From IMG/VR virus record IMGVR_UViG_3300036818_000088, positions 1-64,000 of that record: a stretch of DNA of 64,000 nucleotides; one strand, written 5' to 3'. Numbering within the stretch: position 1 is the stretch's first letter; each line of letters starts with the position of its first letter. Positions 2,498-45,982 of this stretch are shown here, piece after piece. The stretch is from a virus. The position numbers and the translations under genes are program-made. The notes under the pieces are model-generated. The model had not been told where the DNA came from and made no database searches. It saw only the letters and a program-made list of their open reading frames with translations.

Positions 2498-3733
2498 TTG
2501 CCAGAGAAGACCGATCAGCCCGCGAGCACCGACCTCGCAGAGCGCGAGCCTTCCGCTGCCAACCCGCTCGCCCTGATCGACGACACCTTCACCAAAGACG
2601 AGGTCGGCGCGATAGCCAAGTTCATCGGCGTCTCTGCCGAGGACCCCGGCTTCCGCCCCTTCCTCGCCGTCGCCGCCTCGATGGGCCTCTCGCCGCTTAA
2701 CAGCGAGATCTGGCTGATTAAGGGCCGCCGCGAAGTAGGCGGCAAATGGGAGGATTTCTACCGCCCCGCCGCTGGCCGCGATGGCTTCCTGCGCAAGGCC
2801 GAAGAATCGCCGAAGTTCAGGGGCATCCGCTCCAACACCGTCTGCGCCAACGACACCTTCGAGGTCGAAGACGACGGCGAGGAGGTCAAGATGGTCCATC
2901 GCTTCAAGTCACTCAGCCCCAACGCCCCCAAAGGCAAGGAGGCTCGCTACCGAGGCCCCGTCATCGGCGCCTGGGCCAAGGTCTTCTTCCGCGACGGGCG
3001 CCCACCGCTCTTCTACTTCGCCCCTGCCCACGAGCACGTCAAGACGAAGGTCAAGGATGGCAACGTCGAATTCGCCGGCGCTTGGTCCTACACCTCGGCA
3101 ATGTGCGAGAAGGCCGCCCAGTCACGAGTGCTGCGCCTCGCCTTCCGCATCACCGGCATCGTCCCCGTCGATGAGCTGCGCTCCGATGATCCGCAGATGG
3201 TCGCCAGCTCGACCACTGCCACCGATGCCGACGGCGAGTCGATCGCCGATGATCCCGGTCCTAAGAACGCCGAGTTCATTGACGGCCTTGAGCAGGTGCC
3301 CGAGGAGCTGCGCAAGGAGCTGACCATCGCCCTCGAGCAGCTCAACGAGCTGATCCCCTTCTCTTGGACCCCCGCCAAGGTGCGAATGCGGCTAGGGTCG
3401 GGCTGCGATGAGGAGAAAGCCCGCGCCGTGCTTGAGGAGGTCGAAGCCGAGTTCAAGGCTCTGCGCGACAAGCAGGCCGAGCGCGAGGCCCGCGAAGTCG
3501 AGTCCGTCGAGGAGGCCGTGCAGGTCGTCTTGGCCCGCGATATCAAGCCGCCAGTCGAGCTTCTATACGAAGTGGATGTGGGCGAGCACGATTGGGTGCT
3601 GATCGAAGATGCGGTATTCGATCAGGAAGCTGCGCGCATGGTCCTCAAGACAGAGATGGGCGAAAAGACATTCAGCCCAACCGACGAGTTGGAAGTCCGC
3701 TCGCCACAGGACGCCAGCCCCGACGAGGGCTGA
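2498..3733 (+). CDS. recT: RecT/Bet-family single-strand annealing protein
   Basis: GLSPLNSEIWLI, GRDGFLRKA, IGAWAKV, AMCEKAAQSRVLRLAF; TTG start after AGGAGG; exonuclease partner downstream. Confidence 0.85.
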   Translation: MPEKTDQPASTDLAEREPSAANPLALIDDTFTKDEVGAIAKFIGVSAEDPGFRPFLAVAASMGLSPLNSEIWLIKGRREVGGKWEDFYRPAAGRDGFLRKAEESPKFRGIRSNTVCANDTFEVEDDGEEVKMVHRFKSLSPNAPKGKEARYRGPVIGAWAKVFFRDGRPPLFYFAPAHEHVKTKVKDGNVEFAGAWSYTSAMCEKAAQSRVLRLAFRITGIVPVDELRSDDPQMVASSTTATDADGESIADDPGPKNAEFIDGLEQVPEELRKELTIALEQLNELIPFSWTPAKVRMRLGSGCDEEKARAVLEEVEAEFKALRDKQAEREAREVESVEEAVQVVLARDIKPPVELLYEVDVGEHDWVLIEDAVFDQEAARMVLKTEMGEKTFSPTDELEVRSPQDASPDEG

Positions 3734-3736
3734 GTC

Positions 3737-3952
3737 GTGCAGATCCAGGTTCTAGCCCTCTACCTCGATGACGAGGGGAGGCCGCTGTGGAACTACAACC
3801 ACATTGAGGCCGTGCCGGCTACCGGCGACGCTGAGCAGATGCTGCTTGCGGCGAGAGGCAAGATCGACGATCATCTGCGCCGGGCCAAAGAGGCCATCGG
3901 CACGCAGGCCGAAGCCGACCTGAAACGCCTCGCCGATGAGGCGAAGCCATGA
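3737..3952 (+). CDS. Hypothetical protein
   Basis: Tightly packed ORF in operon. Confidence 0.6.
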   Translation: MQIQVLALYLDDEGRPLWNYNHIEAVPATGDAEQMLLAARGKIDDHLRRAKEAIGTQAEADLKRLADEAKP

Positions 3953-5184
3953 GCGAGCGCATGATCGCCCCGGTGCCCGAGGGGCCGATGAGCCTCGACG
4001 CGGTGATCGAGGCTCTGCCCAAGGTCCGCCAGTCGCTGCTCTCCAAGTTCGATGATTGCCCGTTGAGTTGCTACTTTGAGCTGCGCTGGGCGCAGGGCTG
4101 GTCGACGCACCCCCAGGCTCGCGGCACGATCTTCCACCGCTTCTGCGCCGAGGCGCTCAAAGAGATGAAAGTGCAGGACTCCGAAGGCATCCCCAAAGGC
4201 GTGGCCTTGGCAATCTTGGAGGAGGTGCTCGAGCAGCGCGGCGTCCCGGCTACCGAACGGGTGCGGGTGCCGCTGCGCGAGATCCCCACGCTGCGCATGG
4301 CGGCGATCAAGTTCGCCACCGACAACAGCTTCACGGTCCGCAACATCGTCGATGTCGAGAAGCGGCTGAACGCAAAGCTCAGCTACGTCGATGACGAAGG
4401 GACGGTCCGAGAGCGCGAGCTGACCGGCCAACTCGATGTCCTGGTCGCCGATCCCGACTACGACAAGGGGGCTATATGTGTCGACTTCAAGACGGGGTGG
4501 GGCCTGCCGCCCGAGCGCAATGCCGAGGATCGCGACGCGGCAGAGAAGGGCCTGAGCTACCACGGCTTCTTTCAGCAGCGCTTCTATAGCTGGCTCGTGA
4601 TGCGCAACTACCCCGACATCGACCGCGTGACCCTGCGCGAGTTCTACGTCTACCGCTCCAAAGCCCGCCCTGCGTCCATGCACCGCCGCGACCTCGATCG
4701 CGTCGAGAAGGAACTGAGCGACCTCGTGATGGAGCTCGACCGCTGCATCGCCTCGGGCAAGCCGAAGAAGCTGAGCTTCCCAGAGGTCTCGCCGTGGAAT
4801 CCCCAGCCCGGCAAGTCGTGTACCTGGTGCGTGGCCGGCCATCGCTGCCCGATCGAAGCCGATGTTCGCGAGGCGATAGCCGTACGCAGCCCTCAGGAGG
4901 CCGGAGAGGCCGTCGAGCGCCTGCAGGTCGCTGAAGCCGTCCGCAAATCTCACCGCGCCGCCCTGCGCCCCTGGGTTGAGGAGCACGGCCCGCAGGTCGC
5001 TCGCCATTCCAAGGGGAGGCTGCACTTCGGGCTCAAGACGAATACAGCCGGTGTGCCTGAATTGAGATTCTTCACGTCCCCTGGGAGTGACCGCGCTCCC
5101 TCGCGCAAAAAGGAAGACAAGGCTCTCGAGGACGCCATGCGCCGCTCGATTGAGACGGCGAAAGAGGAGAGGGAGGCAAGCTGA
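3949..5184 (+). CDS. PD-(D/E)XK (RecB/AddB-like) exonuclease, probable Fe-S cysteines
   Basis: DCP, GTIFH, VEK, GQLDVL, VDFKTG, Q..FY, CTWC..C. Confidence 0.85.
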   Translation: MSERMIAPVPEGPMSLDAVIEALPKVRQSLLSKFDDCPLSCYFELRWAQGWSTHPQARGTIFHRFCAEALKEMKVQDSEGIPKGVALAILEEVLEQRGVPATERVRVPLREIPTLRMAAIKFATDNSFTVRNIVDVEKRLNAKLSYVDDEGTVRERELTGQLDVLVADPDYDKGAICVDFKTGWGLPPERNAEDRDAAEKGLSYHGFFQQRFYSWLVMRNYPDIDRVTLREFYVYRSKARPASMHRRDLDRVEKELSDLVMELDRCIASGKPKKLSFPEVSPWNPQPGKSCTWCVAGHRCPIEADVREAIAVRSPQEAGEAVERLQVAEAVRKSHRAALRPWVEEHGPQVARHSKGRLHFGLKTNTAGVPELRFFTSPGSDRAPSRKKEDKALEDAMRRSIETAKEEREAS

Positions 5185-6323: not shown

Positions 6324-6973
6324 TGCCCCGCGTCCCCATCGTCCTCACTTGCGAGCTGGGCCACTCTACCGTCATCGGCCACCTATGGGAGCCAGTGAGC
6401 GATAAGGAGATTGACAAGCTGGCCGAACGCAGCGCCTTGCCAGCCGAGTGCGAGTGGCAGGTCGGAGAGTTCAGTGCCGCGAAGGGCGAAGGTTCCGCAA
6501 TGCGCTGCGCGGCGGCTTTTATCGGCCTCCCCCACGTCGAGGGCTGCGACCGCGAAACCGAGCAGCTCGCCCGCATCGGCGGCCAGAACGTCCGCACCCC
6601 CTTGCGCTCAAGCCCCAAGGAGCGCCCCCCTGAGGGGCCTCTGACGCCTTCTGAGTGGCGACGGCGTGTCTGGGACCGCCAGCGCGAGAAACCCGGTCTC
6701 CCGGCTCTGTGCGCCGTCACAGGGGAGCCTCTGAGCTGGAATGCAGACGAGGTCCATCACCCGCTCGACAAGCGCCTCCTGCGGGCCAAGGGCCTCTCTC
6801 ACCGCATCTGGGACGAGCGCAACGGCATGGCCGTCAAGCGGCAGGTCCATCTCGACCACACTTCACGGATGCGTCCGATCCCTCGGCGCTTCGTGCCGGC
6901 GAGCGCTTTTGAGTTCGCCAGGGAGATCGGCCTTTGGGCCATCGCCCGCCTCAACGAAGACCATCCCGAATAG
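6323..6973 (+). CDS. HNH-like nuclease domain protein
   Basis: WRRRVWDR..CAVTG..EVHHP..WDERNGMAV..H. Confidence 0.55.
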   Translation: MPRVPIVLTCELGHSTVIGHLWEPVSDKEIDKLAERSALPAECEWQVGEFSAAKGEGSAMRCAAAFIGLPHVEGCDRETEQLARIGGQNVRTPLRSSPKERPPEGPLTPSEWRRRVWDRQREKPGLPALCAVTGEPLSWNADEVHHPLDKRLLRAKGLSHRIWDERNGMAVKRQVHLDHTSRMRPIPRRFVPASAFEFAREIGLWAIARLNEDHPE

Positions 6974-6987
6974 AAAAGGAGCAGCAC

Positions 6988-7503
6988 ATGGCAGAGCAGC
7001 AACCGCCGGAGGGCCACGAAGGAGCACCGAAGGCCCACGATGGCGCAGAGAACGGCAACGGGAAGTCGATCGCCCAGCAGGCCGATCAGCCGCCCGTGCC
7101 CGAGGTATCGCCCACTCCGCTGGGCAACGAGAAGCAGATGCCGATCCCGAGCCTCTCCGGCGGGCGGCGCAAGCCGCCGGTCAAGGCCCGGATCATCATC
7201 ACGGCCGCAGCAGCCCCGGCGAGGGGACAGGTTTCCATCGAAGGCGAGCAACTGCTGATCTCGCGCGTCCGCTACTTCAAGGCGACCACGACGCCGCGCT
7301 TCGACGGGGAGGGCCGGGTCGAGTCCTTCGACTATGACCAGACGTTCAAGCCGACCTGGACCGAGGGCCTGCAGGACTTCCTCGACGCCAACGGGCTGAA
7401 GCTTGTGCGCCAAGAGGAGGAAGGCGATGAGGTCGACCCTGGCGACATTGTCGACATCGAGAGGCTGCGCGCTCCGGTCACAGAGGAGGCAATCCCCAGC
7501 TAA
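6988..7503 (+). CDS. Hypothetical protein
   Basis: ATG after AAAGGAG. Confidence 0.6.
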   Translation: MAEQQPPEGHEGAPKAHDGAENGNGKSIAQQADQPPVPEVSPTPLGNEKQMPIPSLSGGRRKPPVKARIIITAAAAPARGQVSIEGEQLLISRVRYFKATTTPRFDGEGRVESFDYDQTFKPTWTEGLQDFLDANGLKLVRQEEEGDEVDPGDIVDIERLRAPVTEEAIPS

Positions 7504-7512
7504 CCTCTCTCG

Positions 7513-7847
7513 CCCTGGCTCGGACGGGGCCATCGGGTGCTAACGCCACATGTTCGGCGTAGCCCGAGAAGCCGCTAGCGCGGAGTCGTCACAGCTAGCG
7601 AACAAAAGGGGGCCGGAAGCGCTGAATGCACCGCAGAGATTCGCGATGCATGGGAGGTCAGCGTTCCCGGCCCCACAAGATCGTAGCGGCATAGACCTGA
7701 GAAAAGGAGAGGCCGAGGCGCGGTCGAACTTCGGAAAGTCCGGTGTCCTCATTGAGAACGGCGCCTCGGCCCAAGACGAACTCGGCTACTATAGCCGCCG
7801 TCGCAGCGGCAAAGCAGTAGGAGAGCCCTTCGGGGTACAAGACGAAC
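7513..7847 (+). ncRNA. Highly structured ~335-nt leader or ncRNA upstream of the replication genes
   Basis: -10 TAACCT 7501-7506; at least six consecutive stems; repeated linker CAAGA(T)CG at 7676, 7772 and 7838. Confidence 0.6.
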
Positions 7848-7856
7848 AGGAGGACA

Positions 7857-8582
7857 ATGAGTGCCCCACGGCGTCCGCAGAACGCTGCCGAAGCGCAGTT
7901 CTACGATGAGGCGATTGAGGAGGGCTGGCTTCCGATGAAGCGAGGATGGCCCGACTTCTTTCTCAGCCGCGCCGGCGAGATCGCTGTTGTCGAGATCAAG
8001 CCGAAGCATTCGAAACGGCTGAAGTCCGAGCAAATGAAGGTGCTCGAGGCTTTGGCGGGATTCGGCGTGCCAGCCTTCCGCTGGTCGCCTGACGGCGGCT
8101 TCGAGCGAATCGTGCCAGACGCAACATTGGGGGGTAAGGGGGGAGCAGTTTCCTCTTCTAAGAAAACGAAAAGAGGAAAACAACAAACATCTCTTTGGGA
8201 TGGGGGGTCCGGGGGGGGACCCTTTTTGGCCTCTCACTCCGAAGTGGATGCTGTCTGGGCTGCTTATGTCGAATTCATAAAGCCGCGCTGCGAGGTTGCA
8301 GGCGTTGAGGAGAGATCCTTCATCCACGCTGCACTCAAAGCGGCCAGCACCGATGAGGTCATTGCCTGCATCCGGGTTTGCTCTGAGTCCGACTTCCATA
8401 TGAAGCGCGGCCAGTTCAAGAATCGCAAGGGCGGCAAGTACACCGGTATCGGAAAGATCCTCAAGCCTCGGCCTCGTCTTGGCGAAACCCAGCGCTCGCG
8501 CATCGAATGGTGGCTGGACCGCGCCGAAGAGTCCGGCTCCGCCACCGACGAATTCGGCTGGACCGAGGAGGAGAGAACGTAG
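7857..8582 (+). CDS. VRR-NUC-type nuclease domain fused to a phage replication-initiator-like C-terminus
   Basis: GWPDFF..VVEIK..LKSEQ..L; G-rich low-complexity linker; EVDAVWAAY..; directly precedes DnaC-like loader. Confidence 0.6.
   Translation: MSAPRRPQNAAEAQFYDEAIEEGWLPMKRGWPDFFLSRAGEIAVVEIKPKHSKRLKSEQMKVLEALAGFGVPAFRWSPDGGFERIVPDATLGGKGGAVSSSKKTKRGKQQTSLWDGGSGGGPFLASHSEVDAVWAAYVEFIKPRCEVAGVEERSFIHAALKAASTDEVIACIRVCSESDFHMKRGQFKNRKGGKYTGIGKILKPRPRLGETQRSRIEWWLDRAEESGSATDEFGWTEEERT
8129..8218. other. Candidate replication origin inside the rep gene
   Basis: G6-TAA-G6 and G6-TCC-G8 flank an AT-rich inverted repeat TTTCCTCTT..AAGAGGAAA. Confidence 0.45.
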
Positions 8583-9334
8583 TGAAGGCGGTTCTGTCAG
8601 ATCGCGGCTCTACCGTTTGCTATATGGCCACGATCACCAAGAACTGCCGCGAATGCGGAGCCCGGCTTCGGCTGCAGCTTCCCGAAGGCGCCTTCACCCG
8701 CCAGATCGCCGAGCACCTGCCCGTGCTCTGCAACTCCTGCGGGGATGCAGCCGAGACCGCGGAAGAGAACCGCAAGCTCCAGGAACGACGTGAGGCCGCT
8801 GAGGCGATGTGCGGCATCCCTAACGCCCGGCGTCTCGGCTGGGATCAGATTGAGGTCGATGATCGAGGGTCGGCTATCGCTGCTGCCCGGCGCTGGGCAG
8901 AGGGCGAGCTGAACGGTCTCTTGCTCTGTGGCCCTGTCGGCACGGGGAAGACGCGGCTGGCCGGGATAGCGGCATGGGATCGCGTCCAACACGGTCACCA
9001 TATTCGCTGGGTCAGCGTCGCTCGCCTGGTCGCAATGGACCGCGCTGGCTTCGGCACCAATGAGAAGGCACAGGCCAGCCGCATCCTCACCGGAGCCTCG
9101 CCGCTCGTCCTCGACGATCTCGACAAGGTCGGCACCAACGCGACGGTCCGCTCGCTGCTCTACCTGGCGATCGACAACCGCATCGAGGCCGGGTCGCCCC
9201 TGCTCGTCACCACCAACCTCAAGCCCGACCAGCTCGCCGAGACCTTCGGCGAGGCGATCTCCTCACGCCTGCGCGGCGACTGCGAGGTCCATGTGCTGGC
9301 CGGGGCCGACCGGCGACAACTCGCCTCGGCGTGA
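8582..9334 (+). CDS. DnaC/IstB-like AAA+ helicase loader
   Basis: N-terminal CxxC..CxxC; GPVGTGKT Walker A; LVLDDL Walker B; TTNL; SRL. Confidence 0.9.
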   Translation: MKAVLSDRGSTVCYMATITKNCRECGARLRLQLPEGAFTRQIAEHLPVLCNSCGDAAETAEENRKLQERREAAEAMCGIPNARRLGWDQIEVDDRGSAIAAARRWAEGELNGLLLCGPVGTGKTRLAGIAAWDRVQHGHHIRWVSVARLVAMDRAGFGTNEKAQASRILTGASPLVLDDLDKVGTNATVRSLLYLAIDNRIEAGSPLLVTTNLKPDQLAETFGEAISSRLRGDCEVHVLAGADRRQLASA

Positions 9335-9681
9335 GTACTCCCCGCCATCAAGGGGAGCGCTGTTCACATTGTGGCGCCACATCGGCAGCGGTTGCGGTGG
9401 AGATCGCGGATCGGATAGCCCGACGCTATGGGTGCGATCTGAGTGAGTTGCGTAGTCCTAATCGCCGCAAGGATTTGGTGACGCTTCGTAAGCTGATCGT
9501 CGCAGTTCTACGCGGCGCTGGGTTCAGCTATCCGGTCATCGGTCGCGCTCTCGACCGCGACCACAGCACCCTCATCCAAAATCAACGAAAGATCGAAGAG
9601 GCTGAAAAGGCGGGCTTTGGTACGGCTGTTCCGGGAATGCCTTGGAATGCAGATCATCCTTGGCTGGTAGATCACCCATGA
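9331..9681 (+). CDS. DnaA C-terminal (domain IV)-like HTH protein
   Basis: SYPVIGRALDRDHSTL. Confidence 0.8.
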   Translation: MSTPRHQGERCSHCGATSAAVAVEIADRIARRYGCDLSELRSPNRRKDLVTLRKLIVAVLRGAGFSYPVIGRALDRDHSTLIQNQRKIEEAEKAGFGTAVPGMPWNADHPWLVDHP

Positions 9682-10298
9682 TCGGCAAGTGGACCAAGTC
9701 CCCTGGTGCCGAGCTGCTCGTCTATGCCGAGGTCGGTGGCAAACACATCCCCGCAGGTTCCAAGAACGGCTATGCCGTCCGCTACAAGGACGAACGGGGT
9801 ATCTGGCGGGTGAAGATCATGCGCGACGCCCAAGGCAACGAGAGCGCCTCGGTAACGGTCTCTGACCGCAACCAGAAGAGGCTCGAAAAGCGCGCTGTCG
9901 AGATCCAGGCGGCAGTACTCGGAGGGGCGCGCGGCACCGGCTTCTACATCCCCTCGCGCACGATTCCCCTCGCCGCCATCTGCACTTTCTACACGCCGCA
10001 CCCGAAAGCCCACTACGGCACCGGCGCCAACGCCGACAAGCTGAAGGATTCCGCCCCGGCGTTTCCGATCAGCCCGCCTGACGCGACAAAGCTCTGGAGA
10101 GGATTCGAGGACGCCTTGACCGGCTATATCTGGCACGATGATTCGCGCGTCGTCGGCCAGTTCATCAGCGAGGAATTCGTCGAACGCTGGGAACCGCCAA
10201 TGACTCGATTCTGGCTCTACGCCCTACCGGCGACGGTGGCCGAGCGGCGTGCTGTCGAGGGCGATCCAGTACAGGATTCCCTCCTCGCCGCGACATAG
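9678..10298 (+). CDS. rusA: RusA-family Holliday junction resolvase
   Basis: PAGSKN, PPDATKLWRGFEDALTGYIWHDDSRVV. Confidence 0.85.
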   Translation: MIGKWTKSPGAELLVYAEVGGKHIPAGSKNGYAVRYKDERGIWRVKIMRDAQGNESASVTVSDRNQKRLEKRAVEIQAAVLGGARGTGFYIPSRTIPLAAICTFYTPHPKAHYGTGANADKLKDSAPAFPISPPDATKLWRGFEDALTGYIWHDDSRVVGQFISEEFVERWEPPMTRFWLYALPATVAERRAVEGDPVQDSLLAAT

Positions 10299-10300
10299 GC

Positions 10301-10330
10301 TATGCTGGCTGAAGCAAATTCACCCGATCA
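10301..10330 (+). promoter_or_regulatory. Promoter with TGAA-N5-TTCA palindrome and CACCCGATC box
   Basis: TATGCT 10301-10306; TGAAGCAAATTCA 10310-10322; box 10321-10329; SD GAGGAG. Confidence 0.7.
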
Positions 10331-10848: not shown

Positions 10849-11209
10849 CCGCATAGAGGGACTGGAGGAGGAGGTCGAAGCCTCTGCCCGCGTGCTGTAC
10901 CTAAGCCGCTATCCCGACCAGAATTGGATGTGGGTTGATCCGCCGACGAAACACACGTATCGCGGTCTCGCGAGGGCAGCTATCCGCCCCTTCCTCTCCT
11001 CCATCGCCAACCAAGAGCACCGGCTAGTGAGGGAGGCGCTCATGGGGGAGTTCGATCTACGAATTAAGACGGCAGCGCAGAACCGAAATGTATTTATGGT
11101 GGAGAGTTACCAGCGAGCCAAGGACACGACGCTAGCGATCTTCGATGACCTAGATGGCGATGACGGAGAGGCTGTGTCTATTACCCCTACGAGCAAGGAG
11201 GAAGACTGA
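10841..11209 (+). CDS. Hypothetical protein
   Basis: ATG after GGAGG; EASARVLY..YRGLARAAI family. Confidence 0.6.
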   Translation: MPDRIEGLEEEVEASARVLYLSRYPDQNWMWVDPPTKHTYRGLARAAIRPFLSSIANQEHRLVREALMGEFDLRIKTAAQNRNVFMVESYQRAKDTTLAIFDDLDGDDGEAVSITPTSKEED

Positions 11210-12105
11210 TGGAGCAGCAGGTAGTCGAGAAGGCCAGCCGCCGCACAACGCTGATTCTCGGCGAGGTGCAAGCGCCGATCGGCCTCTTCAAAGTCAGCCG
11301 CGATCCGGCCCGTGCCCGCGCTTGGCAGAAGCCCCCGGTCGAGGCCGACCCCGAAGACCGCGAACTGGGCGATGCGCTCGCCGGCACGACCCCCAAAGCC
11401 TCCGTCGACAAGGGCAAGCCCACCGGCGGGGAGCCGATGCCGCACCCCGACAAGGCCGCCGAGGAGAAGCCCGAGAAGCCCCGCAAAGGCATCGTCAAGG
11501 CCGACGGCGAGTTCGTCGACCTGACCGAGCAGATCGAGGCGATCGCCGAGCGCACGACGCTCGACTGCCTTGAGGTCGTCTCCTTCATCCGTCGCCAGCA
11601 GGTGCCGCGCGAGCGCATCACCAACGCCTACTACGTCGGCACCGGCACCCGCAAGAAGGGAGAGGGTCATTCACCCACGCAGGTGCTCGCGCTGCTCTAC
11701 CAGGGCTTGAAGCTCCGGGGCCGCGCCGCAGTCGTGCGCTGGGGCATCCGCACCAAATCGGCTGTCGGCGTAATGATCGCCCACGGCTCCGGCTCCCTCG
11801 TCGTGCTGGAGCTTGCCTACGCCGAGAACGTGCTGGCGCCGAACCCCGAGTGCCTCGCCCACCAGCACGTCGCCTTGGATCAGGGCCGAGTCGAGCAGAT
11901 GGCCGACCTGATCGACGCGATGGCAGAGCCGCGGGCCTCGCTCGATGACATCCGTGACCACCGCGCGATGCTCGAGGCAGAGCTAGTAGTGCGCACCGAG
12001 CATGGCGAGCTAGACGACTTCACCGCCGAGACCTATGAGGCTGACGAGCAGCTCGGCGACCTCGCGCATCTGCTTGAGGAGTCCCTGCAGGCCGCTGCCG
12101 CCTAG
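11209..12105 (+). CDS. ku: Ku-like DNA end-binding protein
   Basis: LILGEVQAPIGLFK, KGIVKADGEFVDL, EVVSFI, AYYVG, LALLYQGL..AAVVRW, LEESL. Confidence 0.85.
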   Translation: MEQQVVEKASRRTTLILGEVQAPIGLFKVSRDPARARAWQKPPVEADPEDRELGDALAGTTPKASVDKGKPTGGEPMPHPDKAAEEKPEKPRKGIVKADGEFVDLTEQIEAIAERTTLDCLEVVSFIRRQQVPRERITNAYYVGTGTRKKGEGHSPTQVLALLYQGLKLRGRAAVVRWGIRTKSAVGVMIAHGSGSLVVLELAYAENVLAPNPECLAHQHVALDQGRVEQMADLIDAMAEPRASLDDIRDHRAMLEAELVVRTEHGELDDFTAETYEADEQLGDLAHLLEESLQAAAA

Positions 12106-20851: not shown

Positions 20852-20893
20852 ACCTCCTTCACCACATGCTAAGATGCCCTGCACACCCGATCA
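20849..20893 (+). promoter_or_regulatory. Promoter: palindrome, extended -10 and ACACCCGATC box
   Basis: TGAACCTCCTTCA ccaca TGCTAAGAT gccctgc ACACCCGATCA. Confidence 0.85.
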
Positions 20894-24931: not shown

Positions 24932-24957
24932 TGCTAGGCTGCCCCTGCACCCGATCC
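24932..24957 (+). promoter_or_regulatory. Promoter with TGCACCCGATC box (no TGAA palindrome)
   Basis: TGCTAGGCT gcccc TGCACCCGATC ct AAGGAG. Confidence 0.7.
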
Positions 24958-27161: not shown

Positions 27162-27204
27162 AGTAGCTTCAGCTATGTGCTAATGTCCACGGCACACCCG
27201 ATCA
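27159..27204 (+). promoter_or_regulatory. Promoter: palindrome, extended -10 and ACACCCGATC box
   Basis: TGAAGTAGCTTCA gctatg TGCTAATGT ccacggc ACACCCGATCA. Confidence 0.85.
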
Positions 27205-35933: not shown

Positions 35934-35975
35934 ACCTCCTTCACTCTCCTGCTACGATGTAGCTACACCCGATCA
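35931..35975 (+). promoter_or_regulatory. Promoter: palindrome, extended -10 and TACACCCGATC box
   Basis: TGAACCTCCTTCA ctctcc TGCTACGAT gtagc TACACCCGATCA GAGGAG. Confidence 0.85.
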
Positions 35976-40620: not shown

Positions 40621-41595
40621 GTGGAACAGCAGCGCCGACAAGCTCCGCCTAAGCCAGTCCCGGTCATCCTGCCCGGTGCAGTGGGCGGTGTGGCGGGCAG
40701 CATCCCTGGCTCGGCGTCGGCGACAGCCTCGCTAACTGCCGGTGCCGGTGGTGACACCACCATCGCCGAGGTCTCCGGCAAGTCCGCCGCTGCAGTCTTG
40801 GCGGTGCTGGCGCGGCTCTCGGCCAAGCGCCTCGCTGCGATGCGCGAGCGCCTGCTTGCCTCCGGTACCGCGCTCGGCGACATCGACAAAGCACTCGCCG
40901 AAGAGGTCCAGCGCGAAGCCGTCTACAAGCGCCTCGCCGATCAGCGGGTGAAAGCTGGCATGAAGCTAGCTTTGCGCGCCAGCGATCCCAGCGTCCGCGC
41001 CGCCGCCGCCGAGAAGGTGCTGGCCCGCGAGCAGCGCTTCGCCCAACAGCGCGCCTCGGCCTCAGCCGAACGGGTGCTCGCCTCGGCCGAGCTGCAGGAA
41101 TTGCGACGGATCAGCCCGCAGGGAGCGTTCTGGCGGCTTGGGGCGCGTCAGACGCACACGCCCGACTGCGTGGCTATGGCGGGTCAGTTTTTCCCATGGA
41201 CCGTCCTCAATGAGGTCCACCCGCTGCGACATCCCGGCTGCGGCTGTTTCTTGGTTAGCCTCGGCTCGGCGATCTCCGAAGGCTTGATGGCTCCCGGCGA
41301 CATCCCCACCGACGCTGCTGCCCGCAAGCTCGCCGCCGGGGTCATCGCCCAGGTCCGCCAAGAGAAGGCCGACGCCATCCGCAAGTACGGACTCGAAGAG
41401 GAAGCCACCCGTGAGATCGTCATCCGTGAGCGCCTCGCCGAGACCGGAGCCGATGCCGACCTGCTCGCCGCCGCGCCGCTTCGCTGCGAAAGGTGTTCCC
41501 GAGTCCGACTGAACCAACACCGCCTACGCCTGCTGCGCGAAAAGCAGGCCGAACGGCAATTCGGGATCGCGGCAGCCATCCCCGTCGCCGAGTAG
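40621..41595 (+). CDS. MuF/gp7-like minor head protein
   Basis: HTPDCVAMAG..PLRHPGCGC after portal. Confidence 0.7.
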   Translation: MEQQRRQAPPKPVPVILPGAVGGVAGSIPGSASATASLTAGAGGDTTIAEVSGKSAAAVLAVLARLSAKRLAAMRERLLASGTALGDIDKALAEEVQREAVYKRLADQRVKAGMKLALRASDPSVRAAAAEKVLAREQRFAQQRASASAERVLASAELQELRRISPQGAFWRLGARQTHTPDCVAMAGQFFPWTVLNEVHPLRHPGCGCFLVSLGSAISEGLMAPGDIPTDAAARKLAAGVIAQVRQEKADAIRKYGLEEEATREIVIRERLAETGADADLLAAAPLRCERCSRVRLNQHRLRLLREKQAERQFGIAAAIPVAE

Positions 41596-45286: not shown

Positions 45287-45982
45287 CTAATCGAGCAACC
45301 CGGCGATCTCCTCAAGCGACCAAATGTGATCGGTCACCCCGGCAGCCATCGCCGGAGTCCGGGGGTAGCGCTCCCTCAGCGCCGTATGCGGGCGAGCGAA
45401 GTTGTAATGGAGGTAGTGAAGGCTGACGGCCTGGGCAAGGTTCTCAATCTTCTTGCTGAATCCGTTGGTCAGCCGCGTGAAGCGGCGCATCCCCATCCGC
45501 ATGGTCAAGTTCTGCCGCTCGACGTAGCTGGTTGAGATCCGGTCAGGATCGGGGTCACCCTTCAGGACTCGCGTTTTCGTGCCGGTGCAGACCGCCGGGC
45601 TGTATTTGCGCTCGGGAGTGCCGCTCTCGGCCCGGTAGGTCTTCATGATCTGCGCCCAGTCGACCTGATGGCGGAAGGATGGCCCTACGGTCCCTTCATA
45701 GATCACGTGCCCGTCGGTGCTTAGCTGGATGCGGCCGGCCATCCGGCTCGCCAGGTCGGTCAGGAAGACTTCGGCATCGTCGGAGGTCCGCTCCCCGACC
45801 AGCCAGGAGGGAACCAGCTTCGTATCGGCGCACAGCGCCGTAAAGGTCCATACGTCGCCGTAGCCATACGTGCCCTTGAATTCCTCTGGCACATTCTTCT
45901 GCTTGGCGTAGCAATACGCCCAAATCTCGTCGGCCTCAATCACTTTGCAGGGGAGATCGACAAACACGCCGTCTTGGTACTC
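45287..45982 (-). pseudogene. IS1-family DDE transposase, 5'-truncated
   Basis: DEIW, GDVWTF, LSTDG, TSYVERQNLTMRMGMRRFTRLTNGFSKK, TPAMAAG; similarity stops at EYQD with an in-frame stop just upstream and no HTH. Confidence 0.85.

Follow-up and report, generated by a model that had tools for sequence, protein, structure and literature searches.

We analyzed a 64,000-nucleotide (nt) stretch of phage DNA, hereafter the window, which corresponds to the first 64 kilobases (kb) of a 76,181-nt virus record (IMG/VR IMGVR_UViG_3300036818_000088, CheckV completeness 92%). Our subject is a 353-nt gap on its + strand (7504–7856) that separates the stop codon of open reading frame (ORF) 6934–7503 from the ATG of ORF 7857–8582. 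The gap is non-coding and promoter-less, and it contains a structure that is real and exceptional for this genome. The reading that we favor, and that we hold tentatively, treats the gap as a structured intercistronic RNA that acts in cis and governs how the replication mRNA is processed, stabilized, or translated; transcription of the gap, its action as RNA, and its role in processing or translation are what we infer.

A preliminary description of the region had treated the gap as non-coding and had called it the largest gap in a gene-dense region. The second statement is true locally, and the first is borne out by several lines of evidence. GC content by codon position is flat in the gap (0.68/0.67/0.53), and GC at third codon positions (GC3) is ∼0.8 in the neighboring genes. 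The borders are fixed by the neighbors: the ends of the upstream homologs and the start methionine of the downstream homologs coincide with them. One frame, ORF 7550–7909, starts with an ATG, runs for 119 codons without a stop, and extends into the next gene, so we asked whether this frame or a small peptide could be translated. We find this scarcely credible. The GC3 of the ORF is 0.66, below the ∼0.8 of real genes. No Shine-Dalgarno sequence stands ahead of it, and no Shine-Dalgarno-like tract within the gap precedes a start codon. A search of 1.84 billion representative proteins with the 119-amino acid (aa) product returned a single match, a low-complexity, repetitive 1993-aa protein, although both neighboring genes have relatives in public protein sets. 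Pfam and PHROG searches of the gap ORFs on both strands gave no match. Judged by GC bias, ribosome-binding site, and homologs, the gap does not look like protein-coding sequence, and the non-conservation of ORF 7550–7909 and its lack of a GC3 signature leave the non-coding reading in place.

Folded as RNA, the gap is far more stable than its shuffled versions. The z-score was −4.58 for the + strand and −5.70 for the − strand, with none of 100 shuffles as good, and DNA folding parameters gave a z of −6.0. After GC correction, the gap ranked ∼4th–6th among 427 same-size windows of the 76-kb genome, both strands considered, that is, in the top ∼1%. Folding thus clearly beat the dinucleotide shuffles, in agreement with the structured region proposed in the preliminary description. 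Because both strands fold well, as does DNA, stability alone tells neither whether the acting molecule is RNA nor which strand it would be.

The landmarks quoted in the preliminary description were all found in place: TAACCT at 7501–7506, ATCGGGTG at 7532–7539, CGCTAGC/GCTAGCG at 7573–7600, the hairpin at 7609–7674, the perfect 11-base-pair (bp) stem at 7711–7721/7761–7771, the UUCG hairpin at ∼7825–7836, and the linkers ACAAGATCGTA at 7675, CCAAGACGAAC at 7771, and ACAAGACGAAC at 7837. Their arrangement needs revision. The region had been seen as a chain of hairpins: strong structure is indeed present, but not as a linear chain, since a closed multibranch domain of ∼240 nt (7571–7810, + strand) is favored in the predicted fold. 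The domain would be closed by a stem pairing 7571–7583 with 7798–7810. The segment 7569–7812 has a z of −5.43, the domain adopted the same fold in four flank contexts, and the pair probability of the closing stem was 0.92–0.98. Shuffling either arm of this stem cost 7–9 kcal/mol (z ∼−3.3), and 1 of 150 shuffles was as good. The closing stem competes with the local CGCTAGC/GCTAGCG hairpin at 7573–7600.

Two hairpins inside the domain are clearly non-random. The first, at 7609–7674 (+ strand), is long and irregular: 8+8 bp form the lower stem, a 6-nt GGGAGG bulge interrupts the 3′ side, and 5+3 bp form the upper stem, giving 24 pairs in four segments with a 6-nt asymmetric loop. It has a folding free energy of −41.9, a z of −5.49, and pair probabilities of 0.98–1.00, and it ranks second in stability among 70-nt windows of the whole 76-kb genome. 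The second, at 7711–7771 (+ strand), is a GC-rich inverted repeat whose perfect 11-bp stem (pair probability 1.00) encloses a branched 39-nt interior (z −3.04). The other hairpins of the supposed chain are less convincing: the segments 7507–7570, 7571–7602, and 7781–7814 are marginal (z −1.75 to −2.1), and the UUCG hairpin is at chance level (z +0.1).

The closing stem can only be formed by a single strand and it beats segment shuffles, which supports the cis-acting RNA reading. In the + strand fold, A makes up 44% of the unpaired bases and U 11%, a composition typical of structured RNAs. In the folding model, the closing stem and the A-rich unpaired bases favor a single-stranded + strand molecule.

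The Shine-Dalgarno sequence of ORF 7857–8582, AGGAGG (7848–7853), is mostly unpaired once the coding flanks are included in the fold. Three specific functions were considered for the gap and set aside. In the isolated gap, CCUCU at 7504–7508 sequesters the Shine-Dalgarno sequence with a probability of ∼0.9; this pairing is gone with the coding flanks, and a translational-coupling switch was therefore rejected. A sponge for ribosomes or CsrA was dropped, motif enrichment being marginal (AGGAG, 3 versus 0.8 expected, P 0.05; GGA, P 0.15). The GCTAGC palindromes do not qualify as paired operators either: the genome holds 17 copies, shows no avoidance of them, and they are not distinctive.

We then placed the gap in the transcription map of the phage, whose promoters follow a recognizable grammar. 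The motif CACCCGAT is over-represented (10 occurrences versus 2.4 expected) and, at six promoters at least, sits 7–9 nt after an extended −10 element, TGnTAnnnT, shortly before a GGAGG ribosome-binding site. Promoter/leader sites with a CACCCGATCA box after TGnTAnnnT lie at 336–361 (− strand), 2453–2480, 10293–10330, 20867–20893, 24932–24957, 27178–27204, and 35950–35975. Four of the listed sites carry a TGAAG-N4-CTTCA palindrome at −35, and the site at 10293–10330 carries the box without an exact TGNTANNNT. The latter motif is depleted, with 8 sites in 64 kb versus ∼20 expected, six of the eight being at CACCCGAT-box promoters. Between 4077 and 20867 it is absent from both strands, so none lies in or beside the gap. 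The full promoter pattern of this phage, TGnTAnnnT followed 7–9 nt later by CACCCGATCA, is likewise missing from the gap, where the leader box is present in reverse orientation only. The nearest upstream promoter on the + strand is at 2453–2480 (TGGTAAGGT-N9-CACCCGATCA), and the next boxed promoter is at 10321. Intrinsic terminators were also lacking: the + strand of the gap holds no U-tract terminator (the − strand has one weak match), and the gap hairpins run into CAAGA... without U runs after them. Having neither a phage-type promoter nor a terminator, the gap should be read as an internal part of an operon that runs from 2453–2471 to ∼10.3 kb. The lack of its own promoter makes a co-transcribed cis element more plausible than an RNA gene standing alone. 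The large stand-alone non-coding RNA envisaged in the preliminary description is thus disfavored, as the phage promoter motif is absent near the gap and no U-tract terminator closes it.

A stand-alone RNA might still arise from a different kind of start. TAACCT (7501–7506), which overlaps the stop codon of ORF 6934–7503, could act as a weak −10 for a trans-acting RNA whose 5′ AUCGGGUG would pair with the CACCCGAU start of phage transcripts; the gap would then be the second, larger member of a small-RNA candidate at 2365–2445. We consider this quite improbable. Its attraction lies in the 5′ module TAACCT-N25-ATCGGGTG(C)TAA.CG (7501–7546, + strand), the arrangement of which has a second copy at 2365–2410. 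TAACCT-N25-ATCGGGTG is confined to two places, 2365 and 7501, and its spacing is the same in both; the chance probability of a shared 6-mer at equal offset is ∼0.024 in a fairer simulation. As had been noticed earlier, ATCGGGTG at 7532–7539 is the complement of the enriched CACCCGAT box with which phage transcripts start. However, TAACCT is not of the phage promoter type, since it has no TGn, and no terminator stands before the next gene. The match to the box is 8 nt in the gap versus 10 nt at 2396, and ATCGGGTG is predicted to lie partly inside stems instead of being displayed in a loop. The 25-nt spacers are identical at merely 9 of 25 positions. An anti-leader role of the gap in trans is thus possible but weak.

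The upstream region 2365–2480 has an architecture of its own. TAACCT-N25-GATCGGGTGT forms part of a hairpin; a strong UUCG terminator (2414–2445) comes next, and the promoter at 2453 after it. The terminator is enclosed by a perfect 10-bp inverted repeat, GATCGGGTGT (2395–2404) and ACACCCGATC (2469–2478), and among 70-nt windows of the genome, 2381–2450 ranks fourth in stability.

The repeated linkers of the preliminary description stand in part. An exact 10-mer, CAAGACGAAC, occurs at 7772 and 7838 and nowhere else in the window, but the third linker shares just CAAGA with it. The first copy (7772–7781, + strand) is directly 3′ of the 7711–7771 hairpin and partly paired with 7584–7590 in the minimum-energy fold; shuffling it caused no significant energy change (z −0.5). 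The second copy (7838–7847, + strand) is immediately 5′ of the Shine-Dalgarno sequence of ORF 7857–8582. By our own estimate, an exact 10-mer repeat would turn up by chance somewhere in 356 nt with a probability of ∼0.06, which makes the pair borderline. A processed array, also suggested earlier, finds no tandem repeat to build on, and the units between the linkers are unlike one another: Tandem Repeats Finder reported nothing on 7504–7856, where the recurring sequences are limited to one 10-mer and one 14-mer (12/14). The genome holds no further copy of the gap. The two partial matches were discarded, one because it is a chance match of 7544–7570 within coding sequence (66208–66233) and the other as lying inside a gene (41051–41071).

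Comparison with known families gave no assignment. Rfam 15, whose families include riboswitches, ribozymes, C4/CI-type phage RNAs, GOLLD/ROOL, tmRNA, and introns, was searched over 6500–9000 with permissive filters and E-values up to 10 and returned a sole match in the gap at chance level (11.6 bits, E-value 9.1), so the Rfam comparison proposed in the preliminary description yielded no family; in the whole window there was no gathering-level Rfam match and no tRNA or tmRNA. The gap contains no tandem ∼30–40-nt repeats of the kind expected for a ToxI-like type III toxin-antitoxin array, and the downstream protein is not a ToxN/AbiQ-type endoribonuclease, as it combines a PD-(D/E)XK fold with a replication-type C-domain. 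By shape and position, the gap does resemble the T7-type RNase III signal, an irregular hairpin of about two helical turns with an internal loop, which hairpin 7609–7674 matches provided that it lies within an operon, as we presume.

The strong folding of both strands is also compatible with a role as DNA, in which inverted repeats extruded as hairpins or cruciforms, or displaced strands folded like single-strand initiation sites, would provide an entry site for the initiator-like protein and the DnaC-like loader. The initiator-like gene (7857–8582, + strand) begins right after the gap and is followed by genes for the DnaC-like helicase loader (8507–9334, + strand) and a DnaA domain-IV protein (9331–9681, + strand), and many phage origins lie in or beside the initiator gene. 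The two strands fold equally well, and the z of −6.0 was obtained with DNA parameters. The modeled N-domain of the initiator-like protein resembles Holliday junction resolvases and has D33/E47/K49, and cruciforms are four-way junctions. Distant relatives, described below, have a hairpin upstream of this gene that is single-copy and constant in locus. We nevertheless regard a DNA-level replication element as unlikely. The gap holds no iterons, tandem repeats, or DnaA boxes and no AT-rich unwinding element, its GC content being 0.61–0.65 throughout; GC skew, used for origin mapping, gave no signal. The closing stem and the A-rich loops would have no role in double-stranded DNA. Moreover, one of the relatives (G002) keeps the upstream hairpin despite a different N-domain, so that the hairpin is not matched to the nuclease-like domain, and a better origin-like stretch lies nearby.

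That stretch, 8128–8220, is inside ORF 7857–8582 and encodes the variable linker of the initiator-like protein. In this G-rich sequence (G-runs G6/G6/G6/G8), TGGGGGGTAAGGGGGG and TGGGGGGTCCGGGGGGGG flank an AT-rich stretch with the inverted repeat TTTCCTCTT/AAGAGGAAA, and it is the lowest-GC spot of the region, whose only AT-rich dip lies within the gene at ∼8150–8300. From its sequence features, 8128–8220 appears more origin-like than the gap.

The protein encoded by 7857–8582 has 70 homologs besides itself, among them P0002, which is 81% identical and encoded on a 10.7-kb JGI contig, and P0003, encoded on a 79-kb contig. It consists of an N-domain with a PD-(D/E)XK (Hjc/VRR-NUC-like) fold, a variable linker, and a C-domain that is common to HTH_36 replication-type proteins and is fused to HTH_36 in other phages; the last ∼70 residues (the FPSAD...GIETV domain) present in most homologs are missing from it. 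The family gave no match to solved structures by sequence. The AlphaFold model of the N-domain is confident, and its Foldseek matches are weak and consistent: Hjc resolvases and tRNA-splicing endonucleases, with TM-scores of 0.45–0.64 on the target. The D33/E47/K49 triad is intact. In several homologs (P0023, P0024, P0028, P0032, P0034, P0037), the triad lysine or glutamate is replaced, so that some members of the family may use the domain for binding instead of cutting. A nucleic-acid partner for the Hjc/EndA-like N-domain is conceivable from the model, and no link to the gap RNA was seen.

We wondered whether related phages carry a similar element. Six contigs with distant homologs of the downstream protein (L008/G001, L021–L024, G002) have only a ∼140-nt gap upstream of the gene. 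We found there a conserved element of ∼80 nt (L008 3826–3905; L021 1595–1675; L022 3843–3923; L023 3831–3909; L024 1198–1278; L039 12348–12428), which forms a hairpin: its 12–13-bp stem shows compensatory changes at four pairs, the loop CTTTGGCTAGTAGC never varies, and the 3′ tail CGGACGC.AAG is conserved. Each genome has one copy, always at this locus, and Rfam gave no match for it. The carriers are 78-kb soil phages, in which the hairpin sits between a PD-(D/E)XK exonuclease gene and the initiator-like gene, followed by DnaB. A covariance model of the hairpin, R1, found the G002 member, which was outside its training set, at 58 bits. The same model gave no match in the window at E-values up to 10, even with filters off on 7400–7950, and homology between the gap element and the relatives' hairpin is therefore unproven. 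The two loosely share GGCTA[GC]TA...GCAAAGCA: in the gap, a small hairpin, CGGCTA-CTA-TAGCCG, is followed by ...GCAAAGCA (7783–7816, + strand), the sole match in the genome to GGCTA[GC]TA-N15-30-GCAAAGCA, a pattern that was chosen after viewing both sequences. Since G002 retains the hairpin with a differing N-domain, the hairpin is unlikely to be the specific partner of the nuclease-like domain. As the relatives carry a different hairpin directly upstream of the gene, a structured element in the slot upstream of the initiator-like gene is, as judged from sequence comparison, a recurring theme.

Closer kin were sought by several routes. Blastn against deposited phages found no similarity to the window, and a scan of viral and genome contigs with both neighboring proteins, their alignments, and exact DNA patterns found no close kin DNA. 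A metagenome scan with the downstream protein family found relatives only 43–46% identical. A soil DNA run contained fragments of a phage ∼95% identical to that of the window; its contigs are short and of low depth, and parts left uncovered carry no meaning. The one fragment inside the gap (7738–7850) differed at 1 of 113 positions, versus 35 of 684 for four flanking coding pieces (P ∼0.02, our own binomial estimate). This gives a weak hint that the gap may be under constraint in the near relative. The gap fragment comes from a 151-nt contig that diverges from the window past 7850, at the ribosome-binding site of ORF 7857–8582, which suggests a mosaic junction at the gene start (7850/7851) in the related phage.

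Such a junction also fits a reading in which the gap has no dedicated function and is a spacer at a mosaic junction, or the relic of a gene since lost, with GC-rich palindromes and an identity to the soil phage due to recent recombination. The gap has no family match, five of the seven hairpins fold little better than chance, and the 10-mer repeat is of borderline significance. The contig that matches 7738–7850 diverges at the ribosome-binding site as it would at a module boundary, and mosaicism is strong: a single gene, that for the initiator-like protein, is common to G001, G002, and the window's phage, with no other shared around the locus. On the other hand, phage genomes are tightly packed and an idle gap of 353 nt is unusual here. 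A z of −4.6 to −6.0 and a rank in the top ∼1% would be unexpected for decayed coding sequence, and the long-range complementarity beats shuffles. We judge a functionless spacer to be doubtful.

Taken together, these results lead us to propose the following mechanism for a cis-acting intercistronic RNA. The gap would be transcribed on the + strand inside an early operon from the promoter near 2453–2471, in the order RecT (2498–3733, + strand), the PD-(D/E)XK exonuclease (3949–5184, + strand), several small genes, the gap, and the replication genes. The core at 7571–7810 would fold as a closed ∼240-nt domain around the two very stable hairpins, and the A-rich tail past the core would carry the ribosome-binding site of the first replication gene. 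Most likely, the domain would act as punctuation for mRNA processing or stability, in the style of an RNase III site, at the boundary between the recombination and replication modules: hairpin 7609–7674, whose internal loop is asymmetric, would serve as a cleavage site or as a barrier to exonucleases, and the lifetime and translation of the replication mRNA would be uncoupled from those of the upstream recombination-gene mRNA.

Several observations weigh against this proposal. The minus strand, and DNA parameters, give folds at least as good as that of the + strand RNA. The closing stem owes its significance to a modest test (1/150), one among several. An RNase III or stability role of hairpin 7609–7674 is suggested by an analogy of shape alone. 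Finally, the high identity of the gap in the soil phage comes from a single contig of depth 2, 99% identical to 7738–7850; because this contig is unlike the window past 7850, the identity could equally reflect a recent module exchange.

Nearly all genes of the window are on the + strand. The upstream gene (6934–7503, + strand) was called with an ATG start at 6988 and a product of 171 aa; it belongs to no Pfam or PHROG family and has seven homologs (P0074–P0080) of 60–84% identity with the same end position. Downstream, RusA (9642–10298, + strand) follows the DnaA domain-IV gene, and a Ku homolog (11209–12105) lies beyond the replication genes. Ku, RecT, the PD-(D/E)XK exonuclease, TANNNT-type promoters, and a GC content of 63% together point to an actinobacterial host; judged from these sequence traits, the host is probably an actinobacterium, a candidate assignment only. 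In a separate part of the genome, 44680–45970 is the most structured stretch (356-nt windows with z −3.5 to −3.9). It adjoins a minus-strand gene (45287–45967) with a weak match to the IS1 transposase. Minus-strand islands are few here, and this one may be what is left of an insertion sequence, terminators included.

Structured non-coding elements in phage operons are poorly catalogued beyond T7, lambda, and T4 and are nearly unknown in phages of high-GC soil bacteria. A gap domain that governs how the replication mRNA is processed or translated would add a new case of timing control at the RNA level in such phages. Were the domain instead to act in replication initiation alongside an initiator of the junction-nuclease type, an undescribed kind of origin would be indicated. 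In the latter case, an undescribed structured nucleic-acid domain of ∼240–350 nt would, as the folded 5′ part of a transcript, prime or open the G-tract/AT-rich origin candidate within the next gene, or would form a single-strand or cruciform landing site for the resolvase-like initiator, with non-homologous elements filling the slot in other soil phage lineages; we think this scenario distinctly unlikely.

Among known systems, the RNase III signals of T7 (R0.3, R1.1, and others) are ∼60-nt irregular hairpins with an asymmetric internal loop in the spacers of polycistronic transcripts. Hairpin 7609–7674 has this shape, and it too lies in a spacer without its own promoter or terminator. However, the T7 signals are single hairpins in short spacers, whereas the gap holds a closed multibranch domain of 240 nt, known by prediction, within 353 nt. 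The translational operators of T4 (targets of gp43, gp32, and RegA) are short, 20–40 nt, and overlap the ribosome-binding site. Like them, the gap would place a structured RNA just upstream of the ribosome-binding site of a replication gene, which could allow autogenous control; unlike them, its Shine-Dalgarno sequence is outside the stable domain and predicted to be open. ColE1 RNA II and the R-loop origins of T4 rely on transcript-primed replication. The likeness here is a predicted multi-hairpin transcript upstream of the G-rich 8128–8220, which could favor an RNA-DNA hybrid, but the gap has no dedicated promoter or antisense partner, and the G-tracts are inside coding sequence.

The nearest published parallel is found in Cluster A mycobacteriophages, where abundant non-coding intergenic transcripts of unknown function occur in early lytic operons (the D29 63–64 and StarStuff 68–69 regions; a stable Pleft leader RNA) (PMC5712189). 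The phage of the window shares actinophage-like traits, namely Ku, an extended −10 of the TANNNT type, and a strong GGAGG. In D29 the transcripts were observed, whereas the gap is known from its sequence, which is unlike that of any deposited phage. Our comparison also yielded a second, separate element, the single-copy conserved hairpin of model R1 at the same genomic slot in other phages. This hairpin differs from the gap structure in its size, ∼80 nt within a 140-nt gap, and in its invariant loop; its position is like that of the gap, directly upstream of an initiator-like gene, with a PD-(D/E)XK exonuclease module preceding and helicase or loader genes following.

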